IMG/VR virus record: IMGVR_UViG_3300024346_000005
Direction: 5' to 3' (one strand)
From: a virus
Lineage: Duplodnaviria; Caudoviricetes
DNA length: 64,000 nucleotides
Position 1 is the first letter of the stretch, and every line of letters begins with the position of its first letter. The translations under genes and the position numbers were made by a program. Shown here piece after piece: positions 312 to 28,232 of the stretch. A model generated the notes under the pieces. That model searched no databases. It saw only the letters and a list, made by a program, of their open reading frames with translations, and had not been told where the DNA came from.

Positions 312-342
312 ATCAATAAATAGACTTATATAGGCATAAAGG

Positions 343-6618: not shown

Positions 6619-6652
6619 TAAATAAGTAAACAAATCATTTCACAAAACAAAA

Positions 6653-6991
6653 ATGGCAAAGTACTCTGAAAATTGCGACAAGACCTTATCAAAGGCAGTT
6701 CCTACCGTAACTACAAATGGTATTGTAAAGTCTTGGGAACTTGAAGTAGTATATTCTTATCCTGCTGCTGGTATCAACACGACTGATACTCAACTTCGTA
6801 GAAAGTATAACGAAACCGAACAGGTTGAGTATCTTGACAAGACTCCACAAGAGTTTACCAAGGCTGAGTTGTTCTCATTCCTCAATATCTCACAATACGA
6901 TATGGTATTTGACTCTACTTATGAGTCGGTGGTTCTTCCTCCTACAGAAAATAGAGATACCTCATTCGACCTCAATACACTTTCTGATTGA
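6653..6991 (+). CDS. Hypothetical protein (112 aa), possible fibre accessory/chaperone
   Basis: Clean ORF directly after the fibre with its own late promoter ATAAATA at 6618-6624. No recognisable motif. Confidence 0.6.
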   Translation: MAKYSENCDKTLSKAVPTVTTNGIVKSWELEVVYSYPAAGINTTDTQLRRKYNETEQVEYLDKTPQEFTKAELFSFLNISQYDMVFDSTYESVVLPPTENRDTSFDLNTLSD

Positions 6992-7007
6992 TTTTTAATC
7001 TAATATT

Positions 7008-7742
7008 ATGACTAAAGAATATAAAGGTTTTGCGACCGTTGAGCAACAAGAAGAAGTAAAAGTAAGAAGAGTTCTTATCGGCACACCTGCTCTGGACGGT
7101 AAAGTTCAGGCTTGGTATGCCGATTCTCTTTCCAATTCAATCAAAGTATGTGCCGGAAATGGAATTGATTTGCAACCAGTCATTTTAATTGATGAGAGCA
7201 TTCTGCCAATGGCACGAAATGAACTTCTAAACATTGCATATCAAGATAACTATGAGTCTATTGTTTTTATTGATGCAGATCAAGTATGGGATGCAAGAGC
7301 ACTTTTAGATGTTATCAACTCCCAGCACGATGTAATTGGTCTTCCTGTGGTATCAAAGACTGATGAACCGGGAAACTTTAATGTAAAACTTAAAGGTATC
7401 GACCAAATTGAAAAAGACGAACAAGGAAACATTAAGGTTGATGCAGTAGGAACTGGATTTCTAAAACTTTCCAGAAAAGCACTCGAAGCACTGTGGAACT
7501 CAAATCCAACTACATTGTTTAGAGGAAAAGAACTTAAGTTAATTTGTGAGTATGCAACAAATTATAATGAGTTTGTTGGAGAGGATATTTACCTCTGCAC
7601 TAAACTCAAAGAACTTGAGTTTGATATTTGGATCAATCCAAATGCAACCTGTGCTCATATTGGAAGTAAAGTATGGATGGGAAACTTTGCACACTTTCTT
7701 GAGTTTCTAACAACACAACAACCTGAAGAAATTCAAGAATGA
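7008..7742 (+). CDS. GT-A fold (GT2-like) glycosyltransferase
   Basis: VLIGTP...ARNEL...FIDADQ (DxD)...VGTGFLKLSR...GEDIYLC...HIG pattern. Confidence 0.75.
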   Translation: MTKEYKGFATVEQQEEVKVRRVLIGTPALDGKVQAWYADSLSNSIKVCAGNGIDLQPVILIDESILPMARNELLNIAYQDNYESIVFIDADQVWDARALLDVINSQHDVIGLPVVSKTDEPGNFNVKLKGIDQIEKDEQGNIKVDAVGTGFLKLSRKALEALWNSNPTTLFRGKELKLICEYATNYNEFVGEDIYLCTKLKELEFDIWINPNATCAHIGSKVWMGNFAHFLEFLTTQQPEEIQE

Positions 7743-8536
7743 AACAGTTTTATTTCTTGAGTGGTGTTCCTCGTAGTGGGAGCACCGTTTTTGCTACTTT
7801 GATTTCACAAAATCCAAATATACATACCACTCCAACAAGTCCGTTGTTAGATTTACTTCTAACAACCAAACCAACTTGGAAACAGGTATCTACATTTCAA
7901 ACAAATACACACCCAGAACAATACTCAAATATTGAAAGAGGTATTATTTCTGGGTGCTATCAGCACATCAAAGAACCGATTGTATTAGAAAAGCATCGGT
8001 CTTGGGCAAAGTATGGTTCTTATATTCAATCTACATTTCAAACAACTCCAAAGATTATCTGCACCACCAGAAGAATCAGTGAAGTTTTAGCATCTTTTGT
8101 TTCTATCATCAATAAGTCAAAGAAGATTACTTATATTGATAGAGAACTGATGAATACAAATAAACCAGTCAATAATCAAACAAGATGTAGATTATTATGG
8201 GAGAATTATATCAGTGTTCCTTGGAAGAGTTTAAAGATTGGATATGAAACTCAAAGAGAACACCTGTGCTTTATTGATTATGAAGAGATTGTAAACTCAC
8301 CAGAAGAAACACTGAAGAAGGTTTATGAGTTCTGTGAGTTAGAGTATTATTCTGGGCACTACTTTGAGAACTTAAGTAATCCATCACCAGAGAATGATGA
8401 TGCTTATGGTATTCAAGGACTGCACGATGTAAGAAAGAAACTTGGCAGAACCAGTCCAAAACCAGAAGATGTACTTGGTGAGGAATTGGTTGAGTATTAT
8501 GATTCTTTGAAACTAGAATTTTGGAAGAATAAATAG
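7739..8536 (+). CDS. PAPS-dependent sulfotransferase
   Basis: N-terminal 5'-PSB loop LSGVPRSGSTV, plus EKHRSW, R...S 3'-PB-like TRRISEVLAS, and YEEIVNSPEETLKKVYEF. Confidence 0.85.
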   Translation: MKQFYFLSGVPRSGSTVFATLISQNPNIHTTPTSPLLDLLLTTKPTWKQVSTFQTNTHPEQYSNIERGIISGCYQHIKEPIVLEKHRSWAKYGSYIQSTFQTTPKIICTTRRISEVLASFVSIINKSKKITYIDRELMNTNKPVNNQTRCRLLWENYISVPWKSLKIGYETQREHLCFIDYEEIVNSPEETLKKVYEFCELEYYSGHYFENLSNPSPENDDAYGIQGLHDVRKKLGRTSPKPEDVLGEELVEYYDSLKLEFWKNK

Positions 8537-8561
8537 AAATAAGAAAAGATATTAGAAATAA

Positions 8562-8996
8562 ATGCCTGCGAATCGTATTGGTTTTAGTACAGACTTTGTT
8601 CTAGTTGATAGTAGAATTGGTATTGGGACGGCAAATCCAACATATAAACTACAGGTTGTTGGTGATTTTGGTGCTACTACCAAGTCATTCTCCATTCCTC
8701 ACCCAACAAAACCGGGACTGACTTTAAGACACGGTTCACTTGAAGGACCTGAAAATGGGGTTTATGTTCGTGGCAAAACAACAGAGTCTATTATACCTCT
8801 ACCAGATTATTGGACTGGTCTGGTTGATGAGGAAAGTATTAGCGTGAACCTGACTCCAAAGAATGGTAAGTTGCACAGTGTTGTTGGGATATCAAGTAAC
8901 ATAGTAGAGATTGAGTGTGTTGGTGGTGAAATTGATTGTTACTTTATGATACTTGGAGAAAGAAAAGATGTTGCGAAACTAGTTGTGGAATACTGA
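8562..8996 (+). CDS. Short fibre-like protein (GIGTANP motif plus conserved fibre C-terminal domain)
   Basis: RIGIGTANP followed by TKSFSIPHP...LRHGSLEGPENGVYVRG...LPDYW...GERKD, a C-terminal module seen on phage fibres. ATAAATA at 8529-8535. Confidence 0.65.
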   Translation: MPANRIGFSTDFVLVDSRIGIGTANPTYKLQVVGDFGATTKSFSIPHPTKPGLTLRHGSLEGPENGVYVRGKTTESIIPLPDYWTGLVDEESISVNLTPKNGKLHSVVGISSNIVEIECVGGEIDCYFMILGERKDVAKLVVEY

Positions 8997-9010
8997 GGGG
9001 ATAAAATAAA

Positions 9011-10222
9011 ATGTCTGCCATACACGGAGTAAACTATGGGGCACCCACACTAGATCTTAACTTTGCCAAGAACAAGAGTCTTATTGATACTGTAACTGGT
9101 AGAAATCTTATAACTTTTACTAGATCCCAAACAGCAAGAGAAGCAACTTATGTGGGTGCTGATGGTCTTATTAAGACTGCTGCTGCTAATGAACCAAGAT
9201 TCGATCACAACCCGACAACGGGGGAAAGCCTTGGGTTGTTAGTGGAGGAGGCAAGGACGAACATCATCGTTAGTTCATCGGTCTTCAATACGGGCTCATG
9301 GACCGAAGACGGTGTTGTACTAACTGCCAATGCTGGTGTGGCCCCTGATGGCACAACAACGGCAACGTCTGTTTCACAAGGAACAGGAAGCAACCGTTGT
9401 TATCACTTTGATAACAATGGAGCTGGCTCCAAAACTTTGACTGTTTTTGCTAAATCAAATGCAGGAAGTTCCATTACACTTTCTGGTAATTTATCTTATG
9501 GCACAAATTCTATTGGATCTGCTGTTTTAAACACTGCTAATGGCGCTATTTCCACTGCCTTGGGATGCTCTTCTGTTGCATTTCCCAATGGATGGTATAG
9601 ATTTATTATTCCTATTTTTGTAGGCGCTGGATCAGGCAATTCAAACTATTTAAGTATAACTGGACCCGCGTCATCAGTCTTTCTCTGGGGCGTACAAATT
9701 GAAGCAGGCTCCTTCCCCACCTCCTACATCCCCACCACTTCCGCCACCGTAACCCGCGCTGCTGATGTGGCGAGCATTACGGGGACTAACTTTTCAAGTT
9801 GGTATCGGCAGGATGAGGGGACTGTTTTTTGCCAAGGCATTAGCAATTCCGTGTCTAATAGTGCCTACTGGACCCTGCAAGGTACTTCGTCAAACGGAGC
9901 ATCGGTTCTTGTTTATCCTGCAAATAACTTGACCTATCAAGTGGTAAATAGTTCATTCCAGGTTAACTCATCTTTTGCTTCATATCCTGCTGTCGCTAGC
10001 GTTAAAACAGCAGCGGCAATCAAGTTAAATAATTTTGCAGTTGTTGCCAATGGGGGAACAATAACGTCGGACACGTCTGGGACAGTTCCTGCTGCAACCA
10101 GTTTCGTGATCGGCAATTATCTAGGCGGTGGCACGTCTTATGACTATTCCGGCACCATCGCCCGCCTCACCTTCTACCCAACAAGACTTCAAGATTCTCA
10201 GTTACAACAACTCACTAAATAG
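9011..10222 (+). CDS. Virion fibre/spike protein with carbohydrate-binding-like and ConA/LamG-like modules (paralogue A)
   Basis: LDLNFA...FTRS...PRFDH...GLLVEEARTN N-terminus, then NGWYR...WGVQIEAGSFPTSYIPT...TRAAD and a C-terminal beta-sandwich ending IARLTFYP. Confidence 0.7.
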   Translation: MSAIHGVNYGAPTLDLNFAKNKSLIDTVTGRNLITFTRSQTAREATYVGADGLIKTAAANEPRFDHNPTTGESLGLLVEEARTNIIVSSSVFNTGSWTEDGVVLTANAGVAPDGTTTATSVSQGTGSNRCYHFDNNGAGSKTLTVFAKSNAGSSITLSGNLSYGTNSIGSAVLNTANGAISTALGCSSVAFPNGWYRFIIPIFVGAGSGNSNYLSITGPASSVFLWGVQIEAGSFPTSYIPTTSATVTRAADVASITGTNFSSWYRQDEGTVFCQGISNSVSNSAYWTLQGTSSNGASVLVYPANNLTYQVVNSSFQVNSSFASYPAVASVKTAAAIKLNNFAVVANGGTITSDTSGTVPAATSFVIGNYLGGGTSYDYSGTIARLTFYPTRLQDSQLQQLTK

Positions 10223-10236
10223 AATCAAAAAGATAT

Positions 10237-11589
10237 ATGGCAATTGTATACGGTGCAAACTACGGAAGACCCACACTAGATCTTAACTTTGCCAAGAACA
10301 AGAGTCTTATTGACACCATAAGTGGTAGAAATCTTGTTACTTTTACTAGATCCCAAACAGCAAGAGAAGCAACTTATGTGGGTGCTGATGGTCTTATTAA
10401 GACTGCTGCTGCTAATGAACCAAGATTCGACCACAACCCAACAACGGGGGAAAGTCTTGGGTTGTTGGTGGAGGAGGCGAGGACGAACCTGATCAAAAGC
10501 TCCAACAATTTTATATTTAATGATTGGCATTTTACTCAATGCCAGATGACGCCAAATGCTGTGGCAGCACCGGATGGAACGCAAACCGCTGCGTTGATCC
10601 AACAAACCAATGGTACTTCTACTCGGCAATTTATCTGCACTTCTTACTCTGTACCAAGTACCGGATCATCTTGGACTGCTTCTGTATTTGTTAAAAAGTT
10701 TAACTACGACTATGTTATCTTTGGGGCAGGAGATGAGGATTCTGGTTCAAGAGGAAGCAGGTTTGGATACCTTCAAGCTCAACTGCTTTTTCAGTTTTCT
10801 ACCAAAACGTTAACTGTTAACCCGTCTACCAATTGGGGCGGAGTCGTAACAGGCTCTGGATATGAAGAGCTTTCCAACGGTTGGTTCAGGCTTTGGGTGT
10901 CTAAAGCATCCTTTCCTAGAGCGAACTACTGGGGGATTTCTGTGCAGCAAACCCTTACCGGGAGTTTAGAGACCGGCGGGGATCTTAACCTTGTAACCGG
11001 CGACGGCAGTTCGGGGGTGTACTTCTGGGGAATGCAATGGGAATCTGGGGGGTTTAAGACATCTCACATTCCAACTCCGACCAGCGCCACCGTCACCCGC
11101 GCTGCTGATGTGGCAAGCATTACGGGGACTAACTTTTCGAGTTGGTATAACAACAGTGAAGGGACTTTTTTAGCTACTATTCCCGCTGTTTCATTAACAT
11201 ACAACCTTCGTTATCTTATTGATTGTGGCAGCTCTGCAACCAGTGGCGCTGGTGCATCGGGACATGTACTTTTCGGAAACCTAAACAATACTAATGTGGC
11301 TGGTGGCGTTACAGATGTGTCTAACGATTCAGTGGCTGGCCCGTCTGCCGCTTATACCGGCAACATTGTGCGAGTTAGCTACGCTTACAAAGTAAATAAT
11401 TTTAATGCAGCCGTAAACGGTACACTTGGAACGCTAGACACAAGCGGAGCAATTCCAACACTGGGCGCTCAGCAATTAGTTATTGGTTCAAGATTTAATG
11501 GAACTTTTTACATTAACAGAACCATCGCCCGCCTCACCTACTACCCCGTCCGCTTACCCGACGCCACCCTCCAAACCCTCACAAAATAA
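10237..11589 (+). CDS. Virion fibre/spike protein, paralogue B of 9011-10222
   Basis: Same architecture; near-identical first ~75 aa, TRAADVASITGTNFSSWY and TIARLTYYP. Confidence 0.7.
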   Translation: MAIVYGANYGRPTLDLNFAKNKSLIDTISGRNLVTFTRSQTAREATYVGADGLIKTAAANEPRFDHNPTTGESLGLLVEEARTNLIKSSNNFIFNDWHFTQCQMTPNAVAAPDGTQTAALIQQTNGTSTRQFICTSYSVPSTGSSWTASVFVKKFNYDYVIFGAGDEDSGSRGSRFGYLQAQLLFQFSTKTLTVNPSTNWGGVVTGSGYEELSNGWFRLWVSKASFPRANYWGISVQQTLTGSLETGGDLNLVTGDGSSGVYFWGMQWESGGFKTSHIPTPTSATVTRAADVASITGTNFSSWYNNSEGTFLATIPAVSLTYNLRYLIDCGSSATSGAGASGHVLFGNLNNTNVAGGVTDVSNDSVAGPSAAYTGNIVRVSYAYKVNNFNAAVNGTLGTLDTSGAIPTLGAQQLVIGSRFNGTFYINRTIARLTYYPVRLPDATLQTLTK

Positions 11590-11645
11590 AAATGTTAGAG
11601 TCTTTGCCTGATGATAAATACTAATATGCATATTGTAGAGTAGAG

Positions 11646-13586
11646 ATGTCTCAGTTTAATAATATTAAAATTACTCCAAATGTAGGTGCTACTGGTGTAG
11701 GAACTAATCCAAAGATTGAGTTTACCGGTGCAGGTAATTCCACGATTACTCTACAAGTATCCAGTGCTTCTACTGGTGGTTTATTATTTTATGGTGCAAA
11801 TGGTGAGATGCTATCCATTGTGGATGCACCAGAAACATTTCCTTCATTTTCGGTAAATGATCGTTTTAGTATTCCAATTATTGAAGCATATCCAAGTGGT
11901 AACGTATTTTTATCATCATATCCGGGATATCAAGTAGGTATTGGAACTACAGGATTCTCTCAGTCAAATTATAAGTTTGAGGTTTATGGTGGATTAAAGG
12001 TTGATGATATTAGTAGTGGATCCGGTAAGTTTAATGCAAATATTTCAAGAAGTATTGTTGCATCACCGACTGGTGTTCTAAATCCTATTCTTACATTACC
12101 ATCAACAGCAAATAAAGACTATATTATACACTCAATTAGTGTGGCAAATAAGGCACGATATCAACCAGCAGGAGCAGGAGCAACTGTTGGTATTAATACT
12201 TTGGCAGGTGCCGTGACTAGAATTGTAACGGGTGGTGTTGGAACTGGATATACGGCAGGAGATGTATTTGTCAGTATGGGAACCACTGATTTATTAAATC
12301 GTATTTGTGGTCTTGTTGGAATTGCGACAACTTCTTTCGTTGGTGTAGGAACAACCGGAGATCCTGCCTATGCCGGTATCACAAGTGCGATTGGTATTGT
12401 AACGGCAGTCTCTGGTGGTGCAATTACTGGTGTTGCACTGACTTATAATGGATTTGGATATACTACACCACCCGTTGTAACATTCCAAAGTCCGGTTGCG
12501 GGAGGAACAACAGAAACTGGAACCGCAGTATTAACACTTGGAGAAGTCACTGCAGCATATCTTAATGTGCCGGGAGAAGGTTATACAATTCCACCAAATG
12601 TTTCAATTGCTTCAACCACTGGAATTGGCGTACAAATTACTAGTGATGTGGATAGTGATGGAAAAGTTATAAGGTTGAATTTACTCAATAGAGGTTATGG
12701 ATATTCTAAATTAAATCAATTTGGAAACAGTGAGGAGAATGAGGTTTATATTTCACAACCGGGACTTGCAAAAACAGAAGTCGGTGTGGATATAATGTAT
12801 CGTAGAGCACCAGTTGGAACGGCAAATACAATTGATGCTTATATTGCCTTTGATGTTCCTATTCCTGTTGGTGGTGTGCTTGAAGTTCTTAAGCAACCGG
12901 CAGTTATGAATCCAAATGATTCAATTCATATTCGTGGTGTAGATGTGTATGGATCTGGACTTTCTGATGCAATAGATGTTCATATTGCCTATGAAGAAGA
13001 GAATAGCACTGCATTTGTTGGGTTGAGTACCGCACTTGGTTCTACAATTGGTCTGGGAGTAAGTGTATCGGGTACACTTCTCAGTGCAACAACCAATCCA
13101 ATTCTTCTACAGTCCCTAAGACTTACAAATACCGAATTTGTGGGAGATTATGATACTTCTGTAAAAATCGTCAGTGACCGCACAATTGCTTCACTTGCAT
13201 CAACTGCGGCATCTAGTGCAACAACATTCTTTGTTGCCGGTGGCATTAACAGCACCGTAGTTACTACTAACAGTATTGTAAGTATTGGAACGTTTATAGA
13301 TAAAGCACCAATTACTGGAATTGGATCTACTTCATTTACTATTTCAAGAACAAGTCCACTTTCAATTGCAGCAGGAACTGGCGTTACATTCTTTGTATTA
13401 GGTTATGATTCGGTTTATTTTGCAAGAAATCTAATGATTCCTGCATATGCATCCGTAGAACTTTTTGATATGCCGAAGAGATTAGAAAGATATTCTTCTC
13501 TTGTGATTGAAACTGATGTGGTTGGAATTGATCCAAATATTGCAAGTACGATTGACGTAGATTTATCTGGAAAAATTATCTATTAA
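11646..13586 (+). CDS. Virion structural protein (646 aa)
   Basis: G/T-rich with GxGYT.PP.V repeats typical of cyanomyovirus structural proteins. The FSVND..IP.I module is shared with the 343 fibre. ATAAATA at 11614-11620. Confidence 0.65.
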   Translation: MSQFNNIKITPNVGATGVGTNPKIEFTGAGNSTITLQVSSASTGGLLFYGANGEMLSIVDAPETFPSFSVNDRFSIPIIEAYPSGNVFLSSYPGYQVGIGTTGFSQSNYKFEVYGGLKVDDISSGSGKFNANISRSIVASPTGVLNPILTLPSTANKDYIIHSISVANKARYQPAGAGATVGINTLAGAVTRIVTGGVGTGYTAGDVFVSMGTTDLLNRICGLVGIATTSFVGVGTTGDPAYAGITSAIGIVTAVSGGAITGVALTYNGFGYTTPPVVTFQSPVAGGTTETGTAVLTLGEVTAAYLNVPGEGYTIPPNVSIASTTGIGVQITSDVDSDGKVIRLNLLNRGYGYSKLNQFGNSEENEVYISQPGLAKTEVGVDIMYRRAPVGTANTIDAYIAFDVPIPVGGVLEVLKQPAVMNPNDSIHIRGVDVYGSGLSDAIDVHIAYEEENSTAFVGLSTALGSTIGLGVSVSGTLLSATTNPILLQSLRLTNTEFVGDYDTSVKIVSDRTIASLASTAASSATTFFVAGGINSTVVTTNSIVSIGTFIDKAPITGIGSTSFTISRTSPLSIAAGTGVTFFVLGYDSVYFARNLMIPAYASVELFDMPKRLERYSSLVIETDVVGIDPNIASTIDVDLSGKIIY

Positions 13587-13590
13587 AATA

Positions 13591-14247
13591 ATGAGTATCT
13601 TTATAGCATTACCTTGTTATGGTGGTTTGGTTTGTGAAAAGACCACGATGAGTTTGTTTAATCTTGGTAAACTCTTTGTTAGAGAAGGAGTTCCTCACGG
13701 ATTATTTACAGTTGCAAACTCTTCTTTGATTAGTCAAGGAAGAAGTAAGATTGCCAACTTCTTTCTAAATAACACAGATCACGAATATCTATTTTTTCTT
13801 GATAGTGATATTGGATTTGACCCTGCTTCAGTATTAAAACTTTTGAGTTCTGGTAAGGATATTACTGCTGCTCCATATCCGATGAAATCTATTCCTTTAA
13901 GGTATAACTATAAAACCGCAGTTCCAGAGGAACGTCAAGGAGATTTGATAAAGATAGAACATAATGGAATGGGGTTTGTAATGATTCATCGTAAAGTATT
14001 TTATGATATTGCTGCTGCTTATCCTGAACTAAAATATTATCCTTCACTTGATGATAGTAATGTAAAACCAAGTGAGGCAGAATATCATAACTCATATCAT
14101 TACTTTTTGGAACATAAAAATGGACCTACCTTTATGCCAGAAGACATTAGTTTCTTTTGGAGAGCACGAAGTTTAGGTTATGAGTGTTGGTTAGATACAA
14201 GTATTCATTTATCTCATACAGGATCACATCTTTTTGAGGAGAAGTAA
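13591..14247 (+). CDS. GT-A fold (GT2-like) glycosyltransferase, paralogue of 7008
   Basis: IFIALPCYGG...SLISQGRS...FLDSDIGF (DxD)...GMGFVMIHRKVF...EDISF...HTG. Confidence 0.75.
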   Translation: MSIFIALPCYGGLVCEKTTMSLFNLGKLFVREGVPHGLFTVANSSLISQGRSKIANFFLNNTDHEYLFFLDSDIGFDPASVLKLLSSGKDITAAPYPMKSIPLRYNYKTAVPEERQGDLIKIEHNGMGFVMIHRKVFYDIAAAYPELKYYPSLDDSNVKPSEAEYHNSYHYFLEHKNGPTFMPEDISFFWRARSLGYECWLDTSIHLSHTGSHLFEEK

Positions 14248-17165: not shown

Positions 17166-17192
17166 ATATCAAAAACTACATTATCACTCATT

Positions 17193-18239: not shown

Positions 18240-18265
18240 ATAACATTTAGAGGATTTTGAGTTTT

Positions 18266-19195: not shown

Positions 19196-19204
19196 GATTT
19201 TGAG

Positions 19205-19708
19205 ATGAGACAAAAAATTATAATCGTCGATAATTTTCTTGACGAACCTTTGACTTATAAAAACTCCAATCAATTAGGGCCAACGGAAGAGATCTCAAAT
19301 AAGATCTCTCATATTCTTCAATTCAATACTTCGATCATTCCGGCAGCAATCAATATTCCCGAAACAGAAATCACGGCAAATTATAACTTTGATTATATTG
19401 GTATTTTGTATCTTGACTTTCCAACAGAATGTGTGAATAAGACTGGTGTTTCCTTTTGGATACACAAAGAAACACAAGATGAAGAACTTCCAAATCAAAC
19501 TAAAATGAAATGGATGGGATTACAGAGTATGGAAGAGGTTGAGAAGTCTTATGATGTAAGTAAGAAAGAAAACTGGGAAAGTTATATGAATTACTTTGTA
19601 AAATATAATCGATTGATTTTATTTGATGCTCGATTGTTTCATTCTTATGGGAATGAGAGTGATTGTAGAAAGTTCTTGATAGAGATCCAGAAACTAAATA
19701 ATCAATAA
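19205..19708 (+). CDS. DUF6445-like (2OG-Fe(II) oxygenase-fold) protein, probably degenerate
   Basis: IIIVDNF...GILYL...TGVSFW...KYNRLILFDARLFHS. Paralogue of 22587 but lacks HxD. Confidence 0.6.
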   Translation: MRQKIIIVDNFLDEPLTYKNSNQLGPTEEISNKISHILQFNTSIIPAAINIPETEITANYNFDYIGILYLDFPTECVNKTGVSFWIHKETQDEELPNQTKMKWMGLQSMEEVEKSYDVSKKENWESYMNYFVKYNRLILFDARLFHSYGNESDCRKFLIEIQKLNNQ

Positions 19709-19728
19709 TAGAGTTTTTGTGGATTATA

Positions 19729-22557
19729 ATGCCTAATAATTCTGGAGTATTTTCATTAAGTAGTTACTATGATAAAGATTTAAGTGGAAATATTCCCGAT
19801 AGAAGTAGGGAGGCATTTAGGGAGTATGGGTATTTTGGTGGTGGCGGAACACCTACAGTATCAACAGTAAATAGAGTTGATTACTCTAATGATACCACAA
19901 CCACATCTGTTCGTGGTCCATTAAGTGGAGCAAGAAGATATTTTGCAGGAACTGGCAATTCTAATTTTGGATATTTTTCTAGTAGTAATTCATCTATAGA
20001 TAGAATTAATTATTCCAATGATAATGCAATAACATCGGTGAGAGGTCCATTAAGTTTATATAGAAGTGATTTTGCGGCAACTGGGAATAATAATTTCGGA
20101 TATTTTGGTGCTGGATACACACCATCAGTTCCAAATGTGAGATCAATAGTAGATAGAATTGATTACTCAAATGATAATACAACTGCATTAGTTCGTGGTT
20201 CATTAAGTAAATCAAGATATGGGTTATTAGCAACAGGAAATTCTAACTTTGGTTATTATACTGATGGATATCCTGATGGATCTGCATTATGTGATAGAAT
20301 AAATTATTCAAACGATAGTGTTGTTGCATTAGTTAGAGGATCATTAATTCAATCTAAACAATATGGTGGTGCAACGGGAAATTCTAATTTTGGATATTTT
20401 GGGGGTGGACTAGGTGGAGGAACTTCTACTGAAAGATCTTCTATTTCACGGGTTACTTATTCAAATGATACAGTAACATCATCACCAAGAGGTCCATTAA
20501 GTTTATCAAGAAGAGCAGTAGCAGCAACTGGTAATTCTAATTTTGGTTATTTTGGTGGAGGAAATCCACAACCAGCAACACCAAGATATTCTACAATAGA
20601 TCGTATAGATTACTCTAATGATACAGTAACAGCATCATTAAGAGGTCCATTAAGTGTTGGTGTTGGTGATTTAGCAGCAACCTCCTCCTCCTCATTCGGT
20701 GGTTCTCCAATCTCACAATACGGAGTGTTTGCAAAACCTTTTGGGTATTTTGGAGGTGGTAATCTTCCTGGAAATGCATCAACAATAGATCGTATAGATT
20801 ATTCTAGTGATACTTCATCCGCATCAGTAAGAGGACGACTAACGCTAGCAAGATATGGTATGGGAGCAACGGGAAACTCTAACTTTGGTTATTTTGGTGG
20901 TGGTAATCCCACCACATCAATAATAGACCGCATAAATTATACTAACGATTTAGCAACAACACTGGTTAGAGGTGTATTGAGTTTATCAAAATCACAACAT
21001 TCTGCAGTAGGAAATCTTAATTTTGGTTATTTTTGTGGAGGGTTTCCTGCTAATTTATCATCAGTAGATAGAATATCCTATTCAAATGATACATCTATAG
21101 GATTACCTAGAGGTCCATTAAGTTTAGCAAGATTTGGACTAGCAGCAACAGGAACTTCTAATTTTGGATATAATGCTGGTGGATGGGCACCTAATGCAGT
21201 ATCAACAATAGATCGTATAAATTATTCAAATGATAATTCATCTGCATTAAATCGTAATTCTTTATTAAACAATGCATATTCATTAGCAGCAACAGGAAAT
21301 TCTAATTTTGGATATTTTTCTACTGGATATGTTGGACCAGCAGAAACTTCAATAATATATCGTCTTGATTATTCTAATGATACCACTGCAGTTTCTACAA
21401 GAGGACCATTATCACAAGGAAGAAGAGATTTAACTGCAACAGGAAATTCTAACTTTGGTTATTTTGGCGGAGGAATTCCTCAAGCAGGAAGTCCATTATA
21501 TTCAATAGTAGATCGTATAGATTATTCAAATGATACTGCAACAGCATCTGTAAGAGGACCATTGAGTTCCGCAAGAAGCTATGTAGCAGCAACCTCACCA
21601 ACCTCATTCGGTGGCGCAACAGACTTCCAACCAACTTCAACATTCTTTGATATTCAGTCAATGAGAAGAATTGAAGATACTACAAATGCCAGTGTGAAGA
21701 AGAGAGCACTGGGGTCTTATGGGTATTTTGGTGGTGGGGCAGGTCCAACAAATTACTCAACAATAGACCGTATAGATTATTCAAATGACTTAGCAACAGC
21801 AAGTGCAAGAGGTCCATTAAGTGCTGCAAGATATAGATTAGCCGCAACAGGAAATTCTAATTTTGGTTATTTTGGTGGTGGTGTTGGTAGTGCTTTAATA
21901 ACAAGAATTGATTATTCAAATGATATCTCTACTGCTACAAATAGAAACTCATTATCATCGGAAAAAGCAGCAACTGCAGCATCTGGAAATTCTAATTTTG
22001 GTTATTTTGGTGGAGGTGGAGGTATATCAAGAGTAGACCGCATAGATTACTCAAACGATACACCAATAGCATCGGTGCGAGGACCATTGAGTTCCGCAAG
22101 ATCTTATTTTTCAGCAACAGGAAACTCTAATTTTGGATATTTTGGTGGTGGTTTTCCTGGACCAGTATCAACAGTAGATCGTATAAATTATTCCAATGAT
22201 ACTCAAACAGCAAATGTTAGAGGACCATTAAGTTTAGCAAGAGCATTAGTAGCAGCAACAGGAAATTCTAATTTTGGATACTTTGGCGGTGGAACACCAG
22301 ATGGCACAACATTAGTAGACCGTATAGATTACTCTAATGATACTGCAACAGCATCTGTTCGTGGAGGAATTGGATCGAGAAGATACCATTCGGCAACAGG
22401 AAATTCTAATTTTGGTTATTTTGGTGGTGGTGGGGGACCAATAGCAACAGTGAACCGTATAGATTATGCTAATGATACAGCACAAGCAAGCACCAGAGGA
22501 CCTTTAAGTTTAGCAAGAGGAGATTTAGCAGCAACAACCAACGCCAGAAATTCCTAA
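19729..22557 (+). CDS. Kelch-like repeat protein 2 (18 repeats, 3 x 6)
   Basis: The most regular paralogue (ATGNSNFGYFGGG...DRIDYSNDT..ASVRGPLS.AR). ATG 19729 is chosen over TTG 19717. Ends TTNARNS. Confidence 0.78.
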   Translation: MPNNSGVFSLSSYYDKDLSGNIPDRSREAFREYGYFGGGGTPTVSTVNRVDYSNDTTTTSVRGPLSGARRYFAGTGNSNFGYFSSSNSSIDRINYSNDNAITSVRGPLSLYRSDFAATGNNNFGYFGAGYTPSVPNVRSIVDRIDYSNDNTTALVRGSLSKSRYGLLATGNSNFGYYTDGYPDGSALCDRINYSNDSVVALVRGSLIQSKQYGGATGNSNFGYFGGGLGGGTSTERSSISRVTYSNDTVTSSPRGPLSLSRRAVAATGNSNFGYFGGGNPQPATPRYSTIDRIDYSNDTVTASLRGPLSVGVGDLAATSSSSFGGSPISQYGVFAKPFGYFGGGNLPGNASTIDRIDYSSDTSSASVRGRLTLARYGMGATGNSNFGYFGGGNPTTSIIDRINYTNDLATTLVRGVLSLSKSQHSAVGNLNFGYFCGGFPANLSSVDRISYSNDTSIGLPRGPLSLARFGLAATGTSNFGYNAGGWAPNAVSTIDRINYSNDNSSALNRNSLLNNAYSLAATGNSNFGYFSTGYVGPAETSIIYRLDYSNDTTAVSTRGPLSQGRRDLTATGNSNFGYFGGGIPQAGSPLYSIVDRIDYSNDTATASVRGPLSSARSYVAATSPTSFGGATDFQPTSTFFDIQSMRRIEDTTNASVKKRALGSYGYFGGGAGPTNYSTIDRIDYSNDLATASARGPLSAARYRLAATGNSNFGYFGGGVGSALITRIDYSNDISTATNRNSLSSEKAATAASGNSNFGYFGGGGGISRVDRIDYSNDTPIASVRGPLSSARSYFSATGNSNFGYFGGGFPGPVSTVDRINYSNDTQTANVRGPLSLARALVAATGNSNFGYFGGGTPDGTTLVDRIDYSNDTATASVRGGIGSRRYHSATGNSNFGYFGGGGGPIATVNRIDYANDTAQASTRGPLSLARGDLAATTNARNS

Positions 22558-22586
22558 TAAATACCAACATAACATAATGAACCCCA

Positions 22587-23210
22587 ATGAGACGATCAAT
22601 CATCATACTTGACGATTTCCACGAGAACCCAGAAGAAGTAAGAAACTACGCAATATCTGCAACTTACTCTAAAGAAGAATCCTCAACATATCCAGGTCTC
22701 AATTCCACAACTGGTTTTCAAGAGGATACATTAAAGTTAAAGATCGAAACACTTCTACAAAAACCAATCAAACCATCAAATCCTTTTGGATACTTTAGAT
22801 ACTCTTGGAATACGGCAGATCAAGAGAACGAAAAACTACAAAAGTATCACGTAGATAATGGTTGGGAATGGGGTGGAGTTTGTTATCTATCCACACCAGA
22901 ACAACTCAAAGACAATCCAGATTCGGGAACACTCTTCGCAAGACACAAGGCACTCAAGATAGATTCAACACCTAGAACCAAAGAAGAAGCAGAAATCTTT
23001 GGTTATACTCATTATGATGAACTAAGACAATCAATCATTTATGGAGATGGATTGGATTTGAATAAATGGGAAACCTATGCTAGGATACCACCAAAGTTTA
23101 ATCGTTTAGTTTTATTCAGGTCTTGGATGTATCATAGTCATCATATCAACTTCGGTGAAATGAACCCAGCACAAAGTCGTTTAGTTCAATTATTCTTTTT
23201 TAATCTATGA
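22587..23210 (+). CDS. DUF6445-like 2OG-Fe(II) oxygenase-fold protein
   Basis: IIILDDFHENPEEVR...YPG...HVD (HxD)...WGGVCYLS...SGTLF...KFNRLVLFRSWMYHS...RLVQLFFF. Confidence 0.7.
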   Translation: MRRSIIILDDFHENPEEVRNYAISATYSKEESSTYPGLNSTTGFQEDTLKLKIETLLQKPIKPSNPFGYFRYSWNTADQENEKLQKYHVDNGWEWGGVCYLSTPEQLKDNPDSGTLFARHKALKIDSTPRTKEEAEIFGYTHYDELRQSIIYGDGLDLNKWETYARIPPKFNRLVLFRSWMYHSHHINFGEMNPAQSRLVQLFFFNL

Positions 23211-24052
23211 AATATGATATATCGTTCTTGGCAGGATTACCCAGAAGTGGTTCTACATTACTTCGTTCAATCCTCAATCAAAATCCTTCATTACACTCAG
23301 GACCAATTTCACCATCAGTAGAACTTCTATATTACACCGATAAGTACTTTCAGTCCAGTGAGATGTTACTGGCATCACCAAATCCACAAGGTTGCTATGA
23401 TGTTCTATCGAATATGATGGATCAATTCTATCACAATATAATGGAGCGAGAAGGCAAATCAAAAATCATAGAATTCAACAGAGCAATTCCAAATAACATT
23501 GAACGCTTTAGAACTTACATTAAAGAAGATATAAAAATTGTATGTCCCGTAAGAAGTATTCCAGAAATCCTTACAAGTTTTATTAGTTTGATTCATAGGA
23601 ATAGTGATAAGGTTTCTTTTGTAGACCAGTATTTGATTGATAATAAGATTAAAGTGAATGATGATACTCGTTGTGATTATTTGATGAGTGATTATGGAAT
23701 CGTAGGGCAGGCATTGTTTGCAATGAGTCGTCCTTATTTGAGAGGTGAAGAGAACTTATTGAAGATTGTGGAGTATGATGATTTGGTTGAGAGAACTGAT
23801 GAGGTAATGAGGGAAGTATATGACTTCTGGGAACTTGAAAAATATCAGCATACTTATGAGAACTTGGAGAATAAGTATCCAGAGAATGATGTCTTTCAGT
23901 ATAACTTGGAGGGTATGCATACTGTTGGTAGAACCATTAAGAAGACTTGTAAGAAACCAGAAGAAGTTTTAAGTGCTGAAATTATAGAAAAATATTCTGG
24001 TATGGAATACTGGAGATCTGATTGTTCCAATAATTATTACCTGACAATCTAA
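23207..24052 (+). CDS. PAPS-dependent sulfotransferase, paralogue of 7739
   Basis: LAGLPRSGSTLL, VRSIPEILTSF, VEYDDLV, and LEGMHTV..TI.KT.KKPEEVL. Confidence 0.85.
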   Translation: MKYDISFLAGLPRSGSTLLRSILNQNPSLHSGPISPSVELLYYTDKYFQSSEMLLASPNPQGCYDVLSNMMDQFYHNIMEREGKSKIIEFNRAIPNNIERFRTYIKEDIKIVCPVRSIPEILTSFISLIHRNSDKVSFVDQYLIDNKIKVNDDTRCDYLMSDYGIVGQALFAMSRPYLRGEENLLKIVEYDDLVERTDEVMREVYDFWELEKYQHTYENLENKYPENDVFQYNLEGMHTVGRTIKKTCKKPEEVLSAEIIEKYSGMEYWRSDCSNNYYLTI

Positions 24053-24080
24053 TAAATAATAAAAAGGTGTCTAGTATCTG

Positions 24081-26927
24081 ATGGCGGACAATAAAACTAT
24101 ACAGAAAATATTTTCTTTGAGTGATTTTCGCAAGAAGCAGTTACTGGGCGAAGTTCCTGAGAGAACCAGAGAGACTTATAGGGAATATGGGTATTTTCTA
24201 GGAATTGGTGGACCATTAAATAGACTTGATTACTCAAACGATACAACAACTACAAATAGAAGAACATCAGTAAATCAATATTTTAGTGGTGGGGCAGGCA
24301 ATTCTAATTTTGGATATATTATGGGAGGTAATAAATCTGGATTTAATTATATAACGGATATTAAACGTATTGATTATTCTAATGATACTAATATTTTATC
24401 TAGGGGGGGTTTAACAATTGGAAGATCCTATACAGGAGCAACAGGAAACTCTAACTTTGGATATATTGCGGGGGGAATTACTAGTGCTACACCTGCATAT
24501 ATTTCTACCACAGAAAGAATAAATTATTCCAATGATAATACCACAGCATCAATTAGAGGTCCTTTAACAATATCAAGAGGTATACTTGCAACAGGAAACT
24601 CCAACTTTGGTTATTTTGGTGGGAGCGGACAAGCCCCATCTGGAGGATCTACAGTAGACCGTATAGATTATTCTAATGATAGTGCAACAGCATTATCTAG
24701 AGGTAATATACAAAATTCTAGTTTTAGTTTTAGTGCGACTGGAAATAATAATTTTGGATATTTTTTAACAGGTTGGGGAACATCTTCATCACATCGTTTA
24801 AATTATGCTAATGATACTGCATTATTATCAATTAGAGGATCTTTAAGTTTTCCAAAATTTTGGTGGCCTGGTTCTACAGGAAATTCTAATTTTGGTTACT
24901 CTGTTGGGGGATCTACTACAAGTTCTCAAGGTCAAGCAGTTTCTACTGTTGATAGAATAGATTATAGCAATGATTTAGTAACCGCTTCTGTTCGTGGACC
25001 ATTATCAAATGTTGATCTTACAATTGCAGCAACCTCCTCTGCATCTTTCGGTGGTGCTAAAAACTCTGCCTTCGCATCAAACCTCACATTCCCAACCGTC
25101 CCAAATGCTGGGTATTTTGGTGGTGGAACCGATGGAACGAATAGTCTTGCAACAATTGATAAGGTAGATTATGCGAATGATACAGCAACTGCAAGTGTTC
25201 GAAGTTCTTTGAGTAGCGCAAAGATTTATGTAAAAAGTGTTAGTAATAATAATTTTGGATATTATAATGGGGCAACTGCATATCCAGCAACTTCAAGCAC
25301 TATCGATAGAATTGAATTTTCATCGGACACTCAAAATACAGTTGTTAGAGGACCATTAAGTATAGCAAGAAATAGAGGTGCTGCAACTGGTAATTCTAAC
25401 TTTGGGTATTTTGGGGGTGGTTATGCTCCAGGAAATAGTTCTACAATAGATCGTATTGACTATTCAAATGATAGTGCAAATGCATCCAATAGATGTTTAT
25501 TGACACTAGCAAGAAGAGATTTTTCAGCAACAGGAAATCAAAACTTTGGTTACTTTGGTGGTGGGTTTTCAAGTGTCGTAGTTCCTGTTGTTGATAGACT
25601 TGACTATTCAAATGATACATTAAATACTTTGAGTAGAGGGGGTATAAATGCAAGATATGATAATATAGCAGTTGGAAATCAAAACTTTGGTTACTTTGGT
25701 GGAGGAACTCCTGGAGTATCTTCAGTAGATCGTTTAGATTATTCAAATGATACACAAACATCATCGGTACGAGGTCCATTGAGTTCTGGTAGAGGATCCT
25801 CTGCTGTAACTGGGAATAATAATTTTGGATATATTGGTGGAGGATTTACCCCTTCTGGATCACCAATTTATTACTCAACAACAGACCGCATCAACTACTC
25901 AAACGATACTGCAATCGCATCGGTGAGAGGACCACTACCAGTTGCTAAATCTTCTGGTGCAGCAACCTCTCCATTAGGATACGGAGGTGCTCCAATTTAC
26001 TTCACCAATCCACTTCCAGAGGTCTTCCAGAAGCAGATAGTATTTAATGATTCTAATACTTTAAGTTCCAATATGCCATTTAAGAGAGTATTAGGGTCTT
26101 ATGGGTATTTTAATGCTTGTGGTTCTAATGGACCTGTAACCACAATTATAAATCGCATAGATTACTCTAATGATACATCAATAGCATCGACAAGAGGCCC
26201 TCTAAGTATTGCAAGAAGATGGACAGTTGGTCTATCAAATCAAAATTTTGGGTATATTTCTGGAGGACAAGGTAGTACAAATATGGACCGCATAGATTAT
26301 TCAAATGATACTTCAAATGCAAGATTTTTAATAACCATTACTGGAGAACAAGGAGGAGGATTTTCAAATAATTTTTATGGATATGTTTTTGCAAATACTA
26401 GTTTATTTACTCGTCTAGATTTTTCAAATGATAGTGGATTAACTTTACAAAGAGGAAGAATGATAACCACTAGAAATACCAGTGGTTGTACTTCTACAGA
26501 CTTTTTTGCTTATATTTCTGGAGATATTTCTAGAGTCGATAGAGTAAATTATTCTAACGATACTGCAACTGCTCTTGTAAGAGGAACACTTAATTTAGCT
26601 AGATATAATATATCTGCAACCGGAAACTCTAACTTTGGATATTTTGGTGGTGGATATAGTAATATATCTTCTGTAGAAAGAGTAGATTATTCAAATGATA
26701 CTGCATTAGCATCATTGCGAGGTAATTTTAATTTTGGTAGAAATGCCAATGCTGCTACTGGTAATCAATCTTATGGTTGGTTTAGTTCAGGACAACAAGG
26801 AGGAAATTATCCGTCTAGAGTGGAAAGAATAGATTTTTCTAACGATTTATCTTTGGCTTCTATTAGAGGTCCATTAACAAATTCTAGTTTTTTTGGGACA
26901 GCAACCACCAACGCAAGATCCTCATAA
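24081..26927 (+). CDS. Kelch-like repeat protein 3 (18 repeats, 3 x 6)
   Basis: Same repeat, leader (RETYREYGYF), linker (FKRVLGSYGYF) and terminus (TTNARSS) as the other two paralogues. Confidence 0.75.
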   Translation: MADNKTIQKIFSLSDFRKKQLLGEVPERTRETYREYGYFLGIGGPLNRLDYSNDTTTTNRRTSVNQYFSGGAGNSNFGYIMGGNKSGFNYITDIKRIDYSNDTNILSRGGLTIGRSYTGATGNSNFGYIAGGITSATPAYISTTERINYSNDNTTASIRGPLTISRGILATGNSNFGYFGGSGQAPSGGSTVDRIDYSNDSATALSRGNIQNSSFSFSATGNNNFGYFLTGWGTSSSHRLNYANDTALLSIRGSLSFPKFWWPGSTGNSNFGYSVGGSTTSSQGQAVSTVDRIDYSNDLVTASVRGPLSNVDLTIAATSSASFGGAKNSAFASNLTFPTVPNAGYFGGGTDGTNSLATIDKVDYANDTATASVRSSLSSAKIYVKSVSNNNFGYYNGATAYPATSSTIDRIEFSSDTQNTVVRGPLSIARNRGAATGNSNFGYFGGGYAPGNSSTIDRIDYSNDSANASNRCLLTLARRDFSATGNQNFGYFGGGFSSVVVPVVDRLDYSNDTLNTLSRGGINARYDNIAVGNQNFGYFGGGTPGVSSVDRLDYSNDTQTSSVRGPLSSGRGSSAVTGNNNFGYIGGGFTPSGSPIYYSTTDRINYSNDTAIASVRGPLPVAKSSGAATSPLGYGGAPIYFTNPLPEVFQKQIVFNDSNTLSSNMPFKRVLGSYGYFNACGSNGPVTTIINRIDYSNDTSIASTRGPLSIARRWTVGLSNQNFGYISGGQGSTNMDRIDYSNDTSNARFLITITGEQGGGFSNNFYGYVFANTSLFTRLDFSNDSGLTLQRGRMITTRNTSGCTSTDFFAYISGDISRVDRVNYSNDTATALVRGTLNLARYNISATGNSNFGYFGGGYSNISSVERVDYSNDTALASLRGNFNFGRNANAATGNQSYGWFSSGQQGGNYPSRVERIDFSNDLSLASIRGPLTNSSFFGTATTNARSS

Positions 26928-26951
26928 ATACTACGAACAACTCATATCATT

Positions 26952-27626
26952 ATGAATTTATTATCAAACATCTTGATTGAACCACAAGTCCTCACACAAG
27001 AAGCACTACAAGAACTTCAAGAACACGCAAGAAACTCAAGCACAACTGATCTATCAGTCTTTGACCCAGACAAAACCAATGAAACAGGTGAGACTTCTTG
27101 GATTGTTGATAAAAATATAAGAGACACACAAATCATTGAGTTTGGTCCTTTGTTTCCAAAGATTGAAGATCTTTTTAAGAACCTTGTAAGAAACATTATT
27201 AATCCTTTTTATGGTATTGAAGTGTGGGATAGTGAAGTTCCACAATTTTTGAGGTATGGTGTAGGAGGTCATTATGCACCTCATATTGATGGTAGGTCTA
27301 TATGGGTTGCTCCAAATGGTGATAAGATTTGGAGAAAATCAACAGACAGATCATTATCCATAGTACTTTTTTGTAATGATGGAAACGGTAAAGATTTTGA
27401 TGGTGGAAACTTTATGTTCCCTGAACTTGGTATAGAAGTTCCACCAAAAGCAGGGACACTTGTGTGTTTTCCATCAGATCAAAACTATTTGCACGGCGTT
27501 CGGGAAGTTACTAAAATTCATAATGAAGTTGGAAGATTGGCAATTGTATCGTGGGCTAGAGTTAAAGGAGAAAGAACAAAAGAAGAAGAAGATCAAGAAC
27601 TTTTAGAAACTTATGGAGTTAACTAA
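26952..27626 (+). CDS. 2OG-Fe(II) oxygenase, prolyl-4-hydroxylase-like
   Basis: LRYGVGGHYAPHID (HxD)...RSLSIVLF.ND...FDGGNF.FP...PKAGTLVCFPS...LHGVREVT...RLAIVSW. Confidence 0.88.
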   Translation: MNLLSNILIEPQVLTQEALQELQEHARNSSTTDLSVFDPDKTNETGETSWIVDKNIRDTQIIEFGPLFPKIEDLFKNLVRNIINPFYGIEVWDSEVPQFLRYGVGGHYAPHIDGRSIWVAPNGDKIWRKSTDRSLSIVLFCNDGNGKDFDGGNFMFPELGIEVPPKAGTLVCFPSDQNYLHGVREVTKIHNEVGRLAIVSWARVKGERTKEEEDQELLETYGVN

Positions 27627-27656
27627 ATAATACAAAGATCTTATAAGTTTAGAGAA

Positions 27657-28202
27657 ATGCAATACTTAAAGCATTATTGGGTTCGTAATGGAGAATATCT
27701 AACTGAACCAGGTCAAAATGGTCCTCTACAAAGTCATTCAAATATTTCAGGATTGGATGTTCGTTATTGGTTGACTGATGATCGTGGAGTTGATTATTGC
27801 CTTTCAACGGTTCCAGATAATACTCTAATCACCGAAGTTGATCCTGGTCTTGAGATTCTTACCAGAGAAGAATGGGATGCAATCGTTGCAACCATTCCTG
27901 CACCAGAACCTCAACCACAACCACCCGGTAGTCCTGATTGGAATACATTTAAGCAATCTGCTGTTGCTTCTGTTCTACTCAATACCTTTGTTGGACAATT
28001 AATTAGTATTGCACCTGTTGCCGCAACGGCACTTCCTGCAACTCTACTTCTTATTGAATCTGGAAACTATCAAGATTTTGAGAATACTTGGACCGCAATT
28101 GAAAACGCAACCACAGTTCCAACCGAACTAATTGCCGAATTCACAACTCTTGCAGAGTCTTGTAATCTGCCAGAAGACTTTGTAAATATTTTTGCTACTT
28201 GA
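27657..28202 (+). CDS. Hypothetical protein (181 aa) with Pro-rich linker, possible fibre-assembly protein
   Basis: ORF with late promoter-like CTAAATA upstream. The PAPEPQPQPPGSPDW linker separates two domains. Confidence 0.6.
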   Translation: MQYLKHYWVRNGEYLTEPGQNGPLQSHSNISGLDVRYWLTDDRGVDYCLSTVPDNTLITEVDPGLEILTREEWDAIVATIPAPEPQPQPPGSPDWNTFKQSAVASVLLNTFVGQLISIAPVAATALPATLLLIESGNYQDFENTWTAIENATTVPTELIAEFTTLAESCNLPEDFVNIFAT

Positions 28203-28227
28203 CACCTGACTCAAAATCCCTTATAAT
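28199..28227 (+). promoter_or_regulatory. Consensus sigma70-type promoter
   Basis: TTGACA 28199-28204, 17-nt spacer, TATAAT 28222-28227. Confidence 0.85.
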
Positions 28228-28232
28228 ATAAA

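Follow-up and report, generated by a model that had tools for sequence, protein, structure and literature searches.

Which molecules do phage-encoded glycosyltransferases (GTs), sulfotransferases (STs) and oxygenases act on when their genes lie between genes for adhesin-like virion proteins? We examined this question in IMG/VR record IMGVR_UViG_3300024346_000005, a 64,000-nucleotide (nt) stretch of DNA from a tailed virus (Caudoviricetes; the whole stretch is hereafter called the window), in which 19 genes on the + strand (343–28202), with intergenic gaps of no more than 56 nt, form an island. The island is a conserved, recombination-shuffled array in which genes for appendages take turns with those for modifying enzymes that are soluble and cytoplasmic. 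Our best reading of its gene content and order, held tentatively and at slightly less than an even chance, is that these enzymes would modify the phage's own appendage (host-recognition) proteins.

The window belongs to a T4-like cyanomyovirus and encodes gp32, a gp48-like baseplate tail-tube cap, the gp5 hub/lysozyme, PhoH and thymidylate synthase. Identity of its gp32 is 76% with the Synechococcus phage S-SRM01 protein and ~70% with the proteins of P-SSM2, P-SSM5 and S-SKS1, and a megablast search of the island against GenBank phages gave zero matches. The island is located between long-fibre genes and the nrdC/thyX/phoH/gp32 block, with a 159-nt gap directly after its last gene (ending at 28202). 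The stretch is present in at least 24 marine metagenome runs, and none of the runs listed is RNA. Contigs from independent metagenome runs span the propeller–enzyme junctions, and the island layout is therefore not an assembly artefact; the joints seen in DNA contigs are short-sided and probably repeat artefacts.

Appendage and enzyme genes of the island

The alternation of structural and enzyme genes set out in a preliminary description of this DNA was reproduced exactly across the 19 genes. The array opens with a late-type promoter box (316–322; defined below) located 20 nt before the ATG of a gene for a 2091-aa repeat fibre (box and gene, 316–6618; PHROG virion structural protein/tail spike, E to 5e-246). 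Cassette D follows (6618–8536), with a late-type box, an unassigned 112-aa protein (6653–6991), a GT-A-type glycosyltransferase (g7008, 7008–7742; phrog_1574) and the first sulfotransferase, ST1 (g7739, 7739–8536; PF13469/PF00685). The next segment (8529–11589) encodes a 144-aa fibre-like protein (8562–8996) and two paralogous tail proteins (g9011, 9011–10222, and g10237, 10237–11589; phrog_5939 tail protein), and is followed by a late-type box, a 646-aa virion structural protein (11646–13586; PHROG virion structural/tail fibre) and a second GT-A (g13591, 13591–14247; phrog_1574), together at 11614–14247. The remainder consists of three propeller genes, each followed by an enzyme cassette that begins with a late-type box: propeller 1 (g14247, 14247–17165, 972 aa; phrog_19111) precedes cassette A (17162–19708), with a GT4 glycosyltransferase (g17193, 17193–18239), a 312-aa helical partner (18257–19195) and a short DUF6445-like protein (g19205, 19205–19708); propeller 2 (g19717, 946 aa, with its late-type box at 19694–22557; assigned by paralogy and PHROG) precedes cassette B (22557–24052), with a DUF6445 2-oxoglutarate (2OG) oxygenase (g22587, 22587–23210; PF20043) and the second sulfotransferase, ST2 (g23207, 23207–24052; PF13469); and propeller 3 (g24081, 948 aa, with its late-type box at 24052–26927) precedes cassette C (26924–28202), with an Fe(II)- and 2OG-dependent oxygenase resembling prolyl 4-hydroxylase (P4H; g26952, 26952–27626; PF13640) and an unassigned 181-aa protein (27657–28202). 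Both sulfotransferases are translationally coupled through ATGA overlaps, to the GT-A in cassette D and to the 2OG oxygenase in cassette B.

The two small GT-A genes (g7008 and g13591) are paralogues without a significant Pfam match, GT2-type models appearing only at E = 0.09–0.18, below cut-off. A family profile built from 17 homologues matched the GT-A glycosyltransferase A197 (2c0n) of Sulfolobus turreted icosahedral virus (STIV) with E = 1.2e-8, and Phe69, Asp71 and Asp73 are invariant among these homologues, with Ser72 completing a D-S-D motif. One GT-A homologue carries the label 'dpG-synthase-like'; we set aside a DNA-chemistry meaning of this label, which we take to denote dolichyl-phosphate-glucose synthase, a member of the GT2 family. 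The g17193 product is a GT4 enzyme of GT-B type, scoring 49.2 bits with PF00534 (Glycos_transf_1; cut-off 26.4) and 40 bits with PF13439 (Glyco_transf_4; cut-off 28.5), and its EX7E motif reads EETFGVSMCE. In the window the GT4 and the 312-aa protein are separate, the latter beginning with TTG and preceded by a CTAAATA box of its own at 18223. The two are joined in most relatives into one open reading frame (ORF) of 580–614 aa, and some of these fusions also carry an inserted FkbM methyltransferase or a prepended GT17 domain. The 312-aa protein, an 'unknown' when taken by itself, therefore belongs to the glycosylation machinery. Its AlphaFold2 (AF2) model is helical (predicted local distance difference test score, pLDDT, 74), with a prefoldin-like helix-hairpin-helix, and gave no significant match in the PDB or the AlphaFold database clusters and no Atlas hit.

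Both g7739 and g23207 encode sulfotransferases, with PF13469 scores of 49 and 46 bits (cut-off 27) and PF00685 scores likewise above cut-off. In both, the 5'-phosphosulfate-binding loop has the sequence PRSGST (PxxGxT; residues 11–17), and Arg116 and Ser124, the 3'-phosphate-binding pair, are invariant. Protein-tyrosine sulfotransferase identity was considered, since TPST1/2 were the top solved matches (E ~1e-7); the confident alignment covers the segments binding 3'-phosphoadenosine-5'-phosphosulfate (PAPS) only, and we keep this identity as a lead rather than an assignment.

Among the oxygenases, g22587 is a member of DUF6445 (PF20043, 53.8 bits) with Syn9 gp52 as a homologue, and g26952 is a P4H-like member of 2OG-FeII_Oxy_3 (PF13640, 56 bits). 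The metal-binding triad and the 2OG-binding arginine are each at least 95% conserved in both: His88, Asp90, His183 and Arg198 in g22587; and His111, Asp113, His181 and Arg195 in g26952. The short g19205 product matches DUF6445 weakly (28 bits), and the first histidine of the HxD...H triad is absent from it and from its whole orthologue set. The family assignments of the eight enzymes counted in the preliminary description all stand; g19205 does lack one metal-binding histidine, as do all its orthologues, and the eight may therefore be seven active ones. No membrane-like or signal-like segment was found in any of the eight, and Pfam and PHROGs searches of the 19 island genes found no gene for nucleotide-sugar synthesis or epimerization, a lipid carrier, polysaccharide assembly or export. 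The 181-aa protein next to the P4H-like gene has a proline-rich stretch (PAPEPQPQPPGSP) and a hydrophobic segment resembling a transmembrane helix (residues 115–133); its distant homologues are shorter and have neither. We rejected the proline-rich stretch as a P4H substrate, as it is confined to the close clade of the window.

The three propeller genes encode paralogues of ~950 aa with 40–47% mutual identity, propeller 1 being 40% identical to the other two, and with ~18 repeats of ~50 aa. Pfam Kelch models stayed below their gathering scores and were matched by g14247 only (29.1 bits against 50, and 17.2 against 20.1). In the AF2 model of g24081, of moderate confidence (mean pLDDT 65), three all-beta domains of ~24 strands each are predicted, and single domains superpose in Foldseek on the Kelch domain of Keap1 with TM-scores of 0.81–0.87 and a root-mean-square deviation of ~3 Å; the nearest viral models include a fragment from S-SKS1 and phage Kelch proteins. 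The modelled fold of the propeller proteins is that of Kelch-type six-bladed propellers, three per protein in the window; across the clade there are one to several propeller proteins per island, with three to six Kelch-type propellers each. A conserved N-terminal motif is common to all of them while the bodies diverge to 25% identity, a sequence pattern that suggests receptor-binding proteins. In phage CBB, a Kelch protein has been proven to be part of the virion (PMC5259590), and TolB-type propellers and a 2OG oxygenase have been found in cyanophage virion proteomes (PMC12801897); the propellers of the island are putative virion parts. An N-glycosylation sequon in the repeats (N-x-T in YSNDT) was dropped as a candidate site, since distant propellers have FSTET and the asparagine is not conserved. 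Of the other structural genes, g9011 and g10237 are 45% identical, and g9011 matches the head spike fibre of the Rhodobacter gene transfer agent RcGTA (6tb9, E = 2.4e-21) and also baseplate wedge proteins.

Conservation and rearrangement in relatives

We searched IMG/VR with a propeller, with the GT4 and with a sulfotransferase profile. The island proved to be a feature of a large clade of uncultured cyanomyoviruses, where it occupies one genome site in about 60 distinct arrangements; searches with the GT4 gave more than 30 contigs in which it lies at this site, and it is present in the virus of single amplified genome AG-345-L05. Its flanks are constant: to the left lie fibre genes or those for the 646-aa structural protein, to the right the P4H, 181-aa, nrdC-like, p461, thyX, phoH and gp32 genes. 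In cultured S-SKS1 (L009, 201121–208007) the island is fragmented: the P4H gene is split into two ORFs and the propeller matches are broken and partly unannotated, which is either real decay or the result of sequencing frameshifts. In S-SRM01, the combination of fibre and sulfotransferase genes is present.

Adjacency of enzyme and adhesin genes was evaluated for the sulfotransferase, for which the best 80 of more than 531 viral contigs were examined and gave 61 distinct arrangements. The sulfotransferase gene adjoins a propeller gene directly in 34 of these and a long-fibre homologue in three, lies within 3 kb of a propeller or fibre in 13 more, and has no recognized adhesin homologue nearby in four. 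The check proposed in the preliminary description, whether the adjacency is conserved across related genomes, thus came out in favour of conservation, with direct contact in 37 of 61 arrangements. An apparent exception, L045, has an 884-aa protein with the propeller-family N-terminal motif and degenerate repeats.

Within the island, several gene groups are stable: GT-A, GT4, partner and short DUF6445; DUF6445 and ST; P4H and the 181-aa gene, a pair with which the island also ends on the right in relatives; and, following the long fibre, the 112-aa gene, GT-A and ST. The order fibre, phrog_1574 GT-A, ST was found again in many contigs. A distant clade, with propellers 25–40% identical to those of the window, keeps the order GT-A, propeller, ST, propeller, GT4, partner, propeller, P4H, the positions of ST and GT4 being sometimes exchanged. 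In some relatives (e.g. L041 and L048) all enzyme genes are contiguous and tandem propeller genes come after them.

A close relative, G001 (L021, IMGVR_UViG_3300027214_000004), illustrates the scale of exchange. It is 99.7% identical to the window over 11523–16270 and 96% identical from 26901 onward, and the intervening 10.6 kb of the window (16270–26901) is replaced by ~800 bp, such that one hybrid propeller directly precedes the P4H gene. G001 consequently lacks the GT4, the 312-aa partner, both DUF6445 genes, ST2 and two propellers. It also has a single tail-protein gene in place of the two in the window (9011–11589). On a smaller scale, the first third of propeller 3 (24081–25070) shares 90% identity with the second propeller of a relative (L026, 12418–13400), which stands in a different place, while the remainder is ~50% identical, which therefore points to mosaic exchange between paralogues. 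In a tree of the first 330 propeller residues, paralogues group by genome.

Outside the cyanophages, Pelagibacter phage HTVC023P (L065, 43962–58672) has a GT4 gene with a GT-A gene after it, both from the families present in the island (26–29% identical); genes for two 2OG oxygenases, a ferrochelatase-like protein and a tail protein lie in the same region. A comparable gene mix may therefore exist beyond cyanophages.

Promoter classes and expression timing

The late-type box was defined as the 7-mer [AC]TAAATA (ATAAATA or CTAAATA), which is TATAAATA-like and located at about −10. Twelve of the 14 + strand copies in bases 1–28200 sit 15–29 nt upstream of a start codon, and 12 of the 19 island genes have such a box 14–33 nt upstream. 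The total is not above chance (21 observed against 26 expected), and it is position and strand that are non-random. The box that comes after each propeller gene shares bases with the stop codon of that gene (TCA-TAA-ATA). Window-wide, boxes also precede the gp48, baseplate and tail genes and are absent before the nrdC-like gene, thyX, phoH, gp33, gp59 and gp32, several of which have TATAAT-like boxes instead. The enzyme cassettes of this phage bear the same box as bona fide late structural genes, and this sharing suggests late timing of the island genes. On the + strand of the island there is no strong sigma70 consensus, the best match being 9/12, and the first 12/12 match lies at 28199–28227. 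The preliminary description, which had placed late-type boxes before most units and before the enzyme genes that follow the propellers (17162, 22557 and 26924) and no consensus sigma70 promoter before 28199, was accurate on these points. The boundary of the island (28199–28325) combines this perfect TTGACA-N17-TATAAT promoter with a hairpin and T-run (28304–28325) ~100 nt past it; there is no ORF between them, and a small RNA may be encoded here. A second 12/12 promoter is located at 28428–28457.

The box class is not constant in relatives. For enzyme genes located immediately after a propeller, 109 distinct upstream regions were compared: 44 have a late-type box, 41 TATAAT, six both and 18 neither, and the TATAAT boxes are often perfect TGnTATAAT (extended −10) sequences. 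Propeller genes of the TATAAT-type relatives retain late-type boxes. The junction boxes differ by clade (L029–L056 and L099–L159): one clade has TGnTATAAT, and the clade of the window and the distant clade have late-type boxes overlapping the propeller stop codon. A few junctions carry both boxes in tandem, e.g. before the DUF6445 gene of L056. With mixed box classes at the same junctions, timing therefore appears to differ between clades. Late expression of the enzymes, as first proposed, agrees with the boxes in this phage; as a general property it fails, the late class not being conserved and TATAAT boxes standing in its place in about half of the relatives. The argument from co-expression, as far as promoter sequences allow it, holds only for the clade of the window and one distant clade.

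Candidate targets of the enzymes

We favour modification of the virion's own appendages because: (i) enzyme–adhesin adjacency survives rearrangement across two adhesin types; (ii) the enzymes are soluble, and sugar-activation and export genes are missing from the island; (iii) relatives have multi-domain GT fusions; and (iv) the propeller family combines a conserved N-terminus with variable bodies. In the scheme we propose, the enzymes would act in the cytoplasm on the appendage proteins, either ahead of assembly or in its course. Sugars would be attached by the A197-like GT-A enzymes and by the GT4 together with its helical partner, whether fused to it or separate, the 2OG oxygenases would hydroxylate side chains, and the sulfotransferases would sulfate the new hydroxyl groups with PAPS from the host. 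The enzymes would serve the appendage family as a whole rather than one propeller each. Substrate, order of reactions, timing and virion location of the propellers are all inferred.

This proposal has parallels in other viruses. The capsid protein of STIV is glycosylated, and A197 of this archaeal virus is the best solved homologue of both small GT-A genes and has the DxD motif in common with them; the similarity spans profile residues 26–141 only, and the acceptor of A197 itself is not established. In chlorovirus PBCV-1, A064R is a multi-domain enzyme of GT/GT/methyltransferase type that builds glycans on the major capsid protein. The GT4–FkbM–partner and GT17–GT4 fusions in relatives of the island resemble such multi-domain enzymes, but PBCV-1 is a eukaryotic virus and no sequence relationship was detected. 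In mycobacteriophages, glycans on capsid and tail-tube proteins have been demonstrated (Freeman et al. 2023, as cited in PMC12801897). The likeness lies in phage GT genes beside structural genes and in inferred cytoplasmic action on virion proteins. The island differs in having fibres and Kelch propellers as putative substrates and in adding sulfotransferases and 2OG oxygenases to the enzyme set, and its modifications are predicted from its genes.

A closer precedent for the chemistry is the prediction by Iyer, Abhiman, de Souza and Aravind (2010) of operons in which a hydroxylase and a sulfotransferase modify co-encoded tail-collar/collagen-like proteins (PMC2938197). As in the island, a 2OG dioxygenase is coupled to a sulfotransferase beside a fibre-like predicted substrate, with hydroxylation followed by sulfation, and Syn9 gp52-like dioxygenases are involved (PMC2938197). 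Those operons are bacterial and often include PAPS synthetase (PMC2938197), whereas the setting here is an island of putative late genes in a phage, with glycosyltransferases and Kelch propellers; no adenosine 5'-phosphosulfate kinase was found in the complete relative G002. The island also resembles the 'lipopolysaccharide (LPS)/cell-wall' clusters of the cyanomyoviruses P-SSM2, S-SM2, S-SSM7 and S-SCSM2R in being a GT-rich variable region near phoH (PMC3037559, PMC12801897). In those clusters, nucleotide-sugar enzymes and many GT families lie in a block that is read as host-acting (PMC3037559, PMC12801897); unlike them, the island has no sugar-activation genes, includes sulfotransferases and alternates its enzyme genes with adhesin genes. 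Virus-encoded virion glycosylation and hydroxylase–sulfotransferase systems are thus kinds already known or predicted. In the literature searched we found no description of an island combining triple-Kelch appendages with GT-A, GT4, sulfotransferase and 2OG oxygenase genes and a clade-specific promoter swap.

Several observations weigh against action on the appendages. First, about half of the relatives have TATAAT or TGnTATAAT rather than late boxes before the same enzyme genes, and in the complete 222.5-kb genome of G002, the only relative where gp55 was recognized, boxes of the TATAAT class alone stand before gp55, gp47, mazG and hli; there they also precede a nucleotide-kinase-like gene and a nucleotide-sugar epimerase gene, and no structural gene. 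Second, the order of cassettes is permuted between relatives, and the label of the downstream cassette changes 19 times on the propeller tree, against 21.4 ± 1.7 times when shuffled, which is not significant. Third, the likeness of the sulfotransferases to protein-tyrosine sulfotransferases is confined to PAPS-binding motifs, in phiM12 and Cr30 distant GT4 and GT-A pairs have early and DNA-metabolism genes as neighbours, and P4H-like and gp52-like oxygenases are common in cyanophages without these propellers (PMC3037559). Finally, inheritance of one ancestral island could account for much of the conserved adjacency. The dedicated propeller–enzyme pairs implied by the original gene order have to be abandoned, since cassettes are shuffled and the neighbouring cassettes do not fit the propeller tree. 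Of the broader proposal that the enzymes act on the virion's own fibres or on the host receptor, the enzyme–adhesin link survives as real and conserved, while the pairing of one propeller with one enzyme and universal late timing do not.

A serious rival, which we consider unlikely on balance, is that the enzymes build or alter a glycan or glycoprotein of the host surface to block superinfection or to keep progeny off debris, the adhesin genes being neighbours within a shared variable host-interaction island. Such host-directed action is how GT or 'LPS' clusters of large cyanomyoviruses are usually read, including those near phoH (PMC3037559, PMC12801897), and it would fit the sigma70-type boxes before enzyme cassettes in about half of the relatives, the same box class before the epimerase gene of G002, and the joint presence of a sulfotransferase, a GT and an epimerase in S-SRM01. 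It is harder to reconcile with enzymes that have no membrane segment and with an island lacking genes for an initiating transferase, a flippase, a polymerase and nucleotide-sugar synthesis. In this phage and the distant clade, moreover, the enzyme genes carry a late-type box overlapping the propeller stop codon, and enzyme genes have remained close neighbours of propeller or fibre genes despite many rearrangements.

Somewhat less probable again is the absence of any functional coupling, in which a recombination-prone, hypervariable island gathers fast-evolving adhesins and unrelated accessory enzymes, for example dioxygenases and sulfotransferases with small molecules or peptide metabolites as substrates, and the interleaving is a by-product of duplication and of exchange at the conserved propeller end-boxes. 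If this were so, one would have to explain why the same enzyme families are kept at 40–65% identity with intact catalytic motifs while the propellers diverged to 25–40%, why the internal order of cassettes is stable (GT-A, GT4, partner, DUF6445s; and DUF6445, ST), and why a second, different type of fibre has its own GT-A and ST pair in many contigs. The shuffled gene order, the mosaic propellers (propeller 3 compared with L026), the lack of co-phylogeny, the identical boxes at propeller ends and the single 10.6-kb block by which G001 differs are nevertheless what such exchange would leave behind. The T4 glucosyltransferases, which have a GT-B fold, count for a last alternative, glycosylation of modified DNA bases as in T4 to evade restriction. 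This is very improbable, even though it has been suggested for cyanophage GTs (PMC12801897) and replication genes surround the distant GT4/GT-A homologues in phiM12 and Cr30, since g17193 is of the GT4 family and not of the T4 AGT/BGT type, no hydroxymethylase was seen in the window (the sole thymidylate-synthase-type gene being called thymidylate synthase, phrog_85), no DNA role is known for sulfotransferases or P4H-like oxygenases, and the genes lie in a fibre module with late-type boxes. For the oxygenases, uncoupled roles have a published basis, as Iyer et al. proposed secondary-metabolite functions for Syn9 gp52-like dioxygenases (PMC2938197).

Modification of the appendages thus remains the reading we prefer, and in its fullest form, possible but rather doubtful, a widespread clade of marine cyanomyoviruses would use phage enzymes, host PAPS and host nucleotide sugars to coat its receptor-binding appendages, both triple-Kelch-propeller proteins and long fibres, with sulfated glycans and with residues that are hydroxylated or sulfated. 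If true, this would be the first sulfated phage virion, and its coat would be programmable, recombination at the conserved end-boxes giving new orders of enzyme and propeller cassettes. What phage-encoded sulfotransferases do has been stated to be unclear (PMC10580990), and cyanomyovirus glyco-genes are routinely classed as host 'LPS' genes or stuffer DNA (PMC3037559). One sulfotransferase family, with more than 500 IMG/VR contigs and almost always beside a fibre or propeller in the set examined, makes the proposal testable by mass spectrometry. The clade-specific swap of late-type and sigma70-type boxes at the same junctions offers a natural experiment on expression timing in cyanophages. If correct, appendage modification would bear on host range, on adsorption to sulfated marine polysaccharides and on the stickiness and decay of particles in seawater, and would change how 'auxiliary metabolic genes' in viromes are read.

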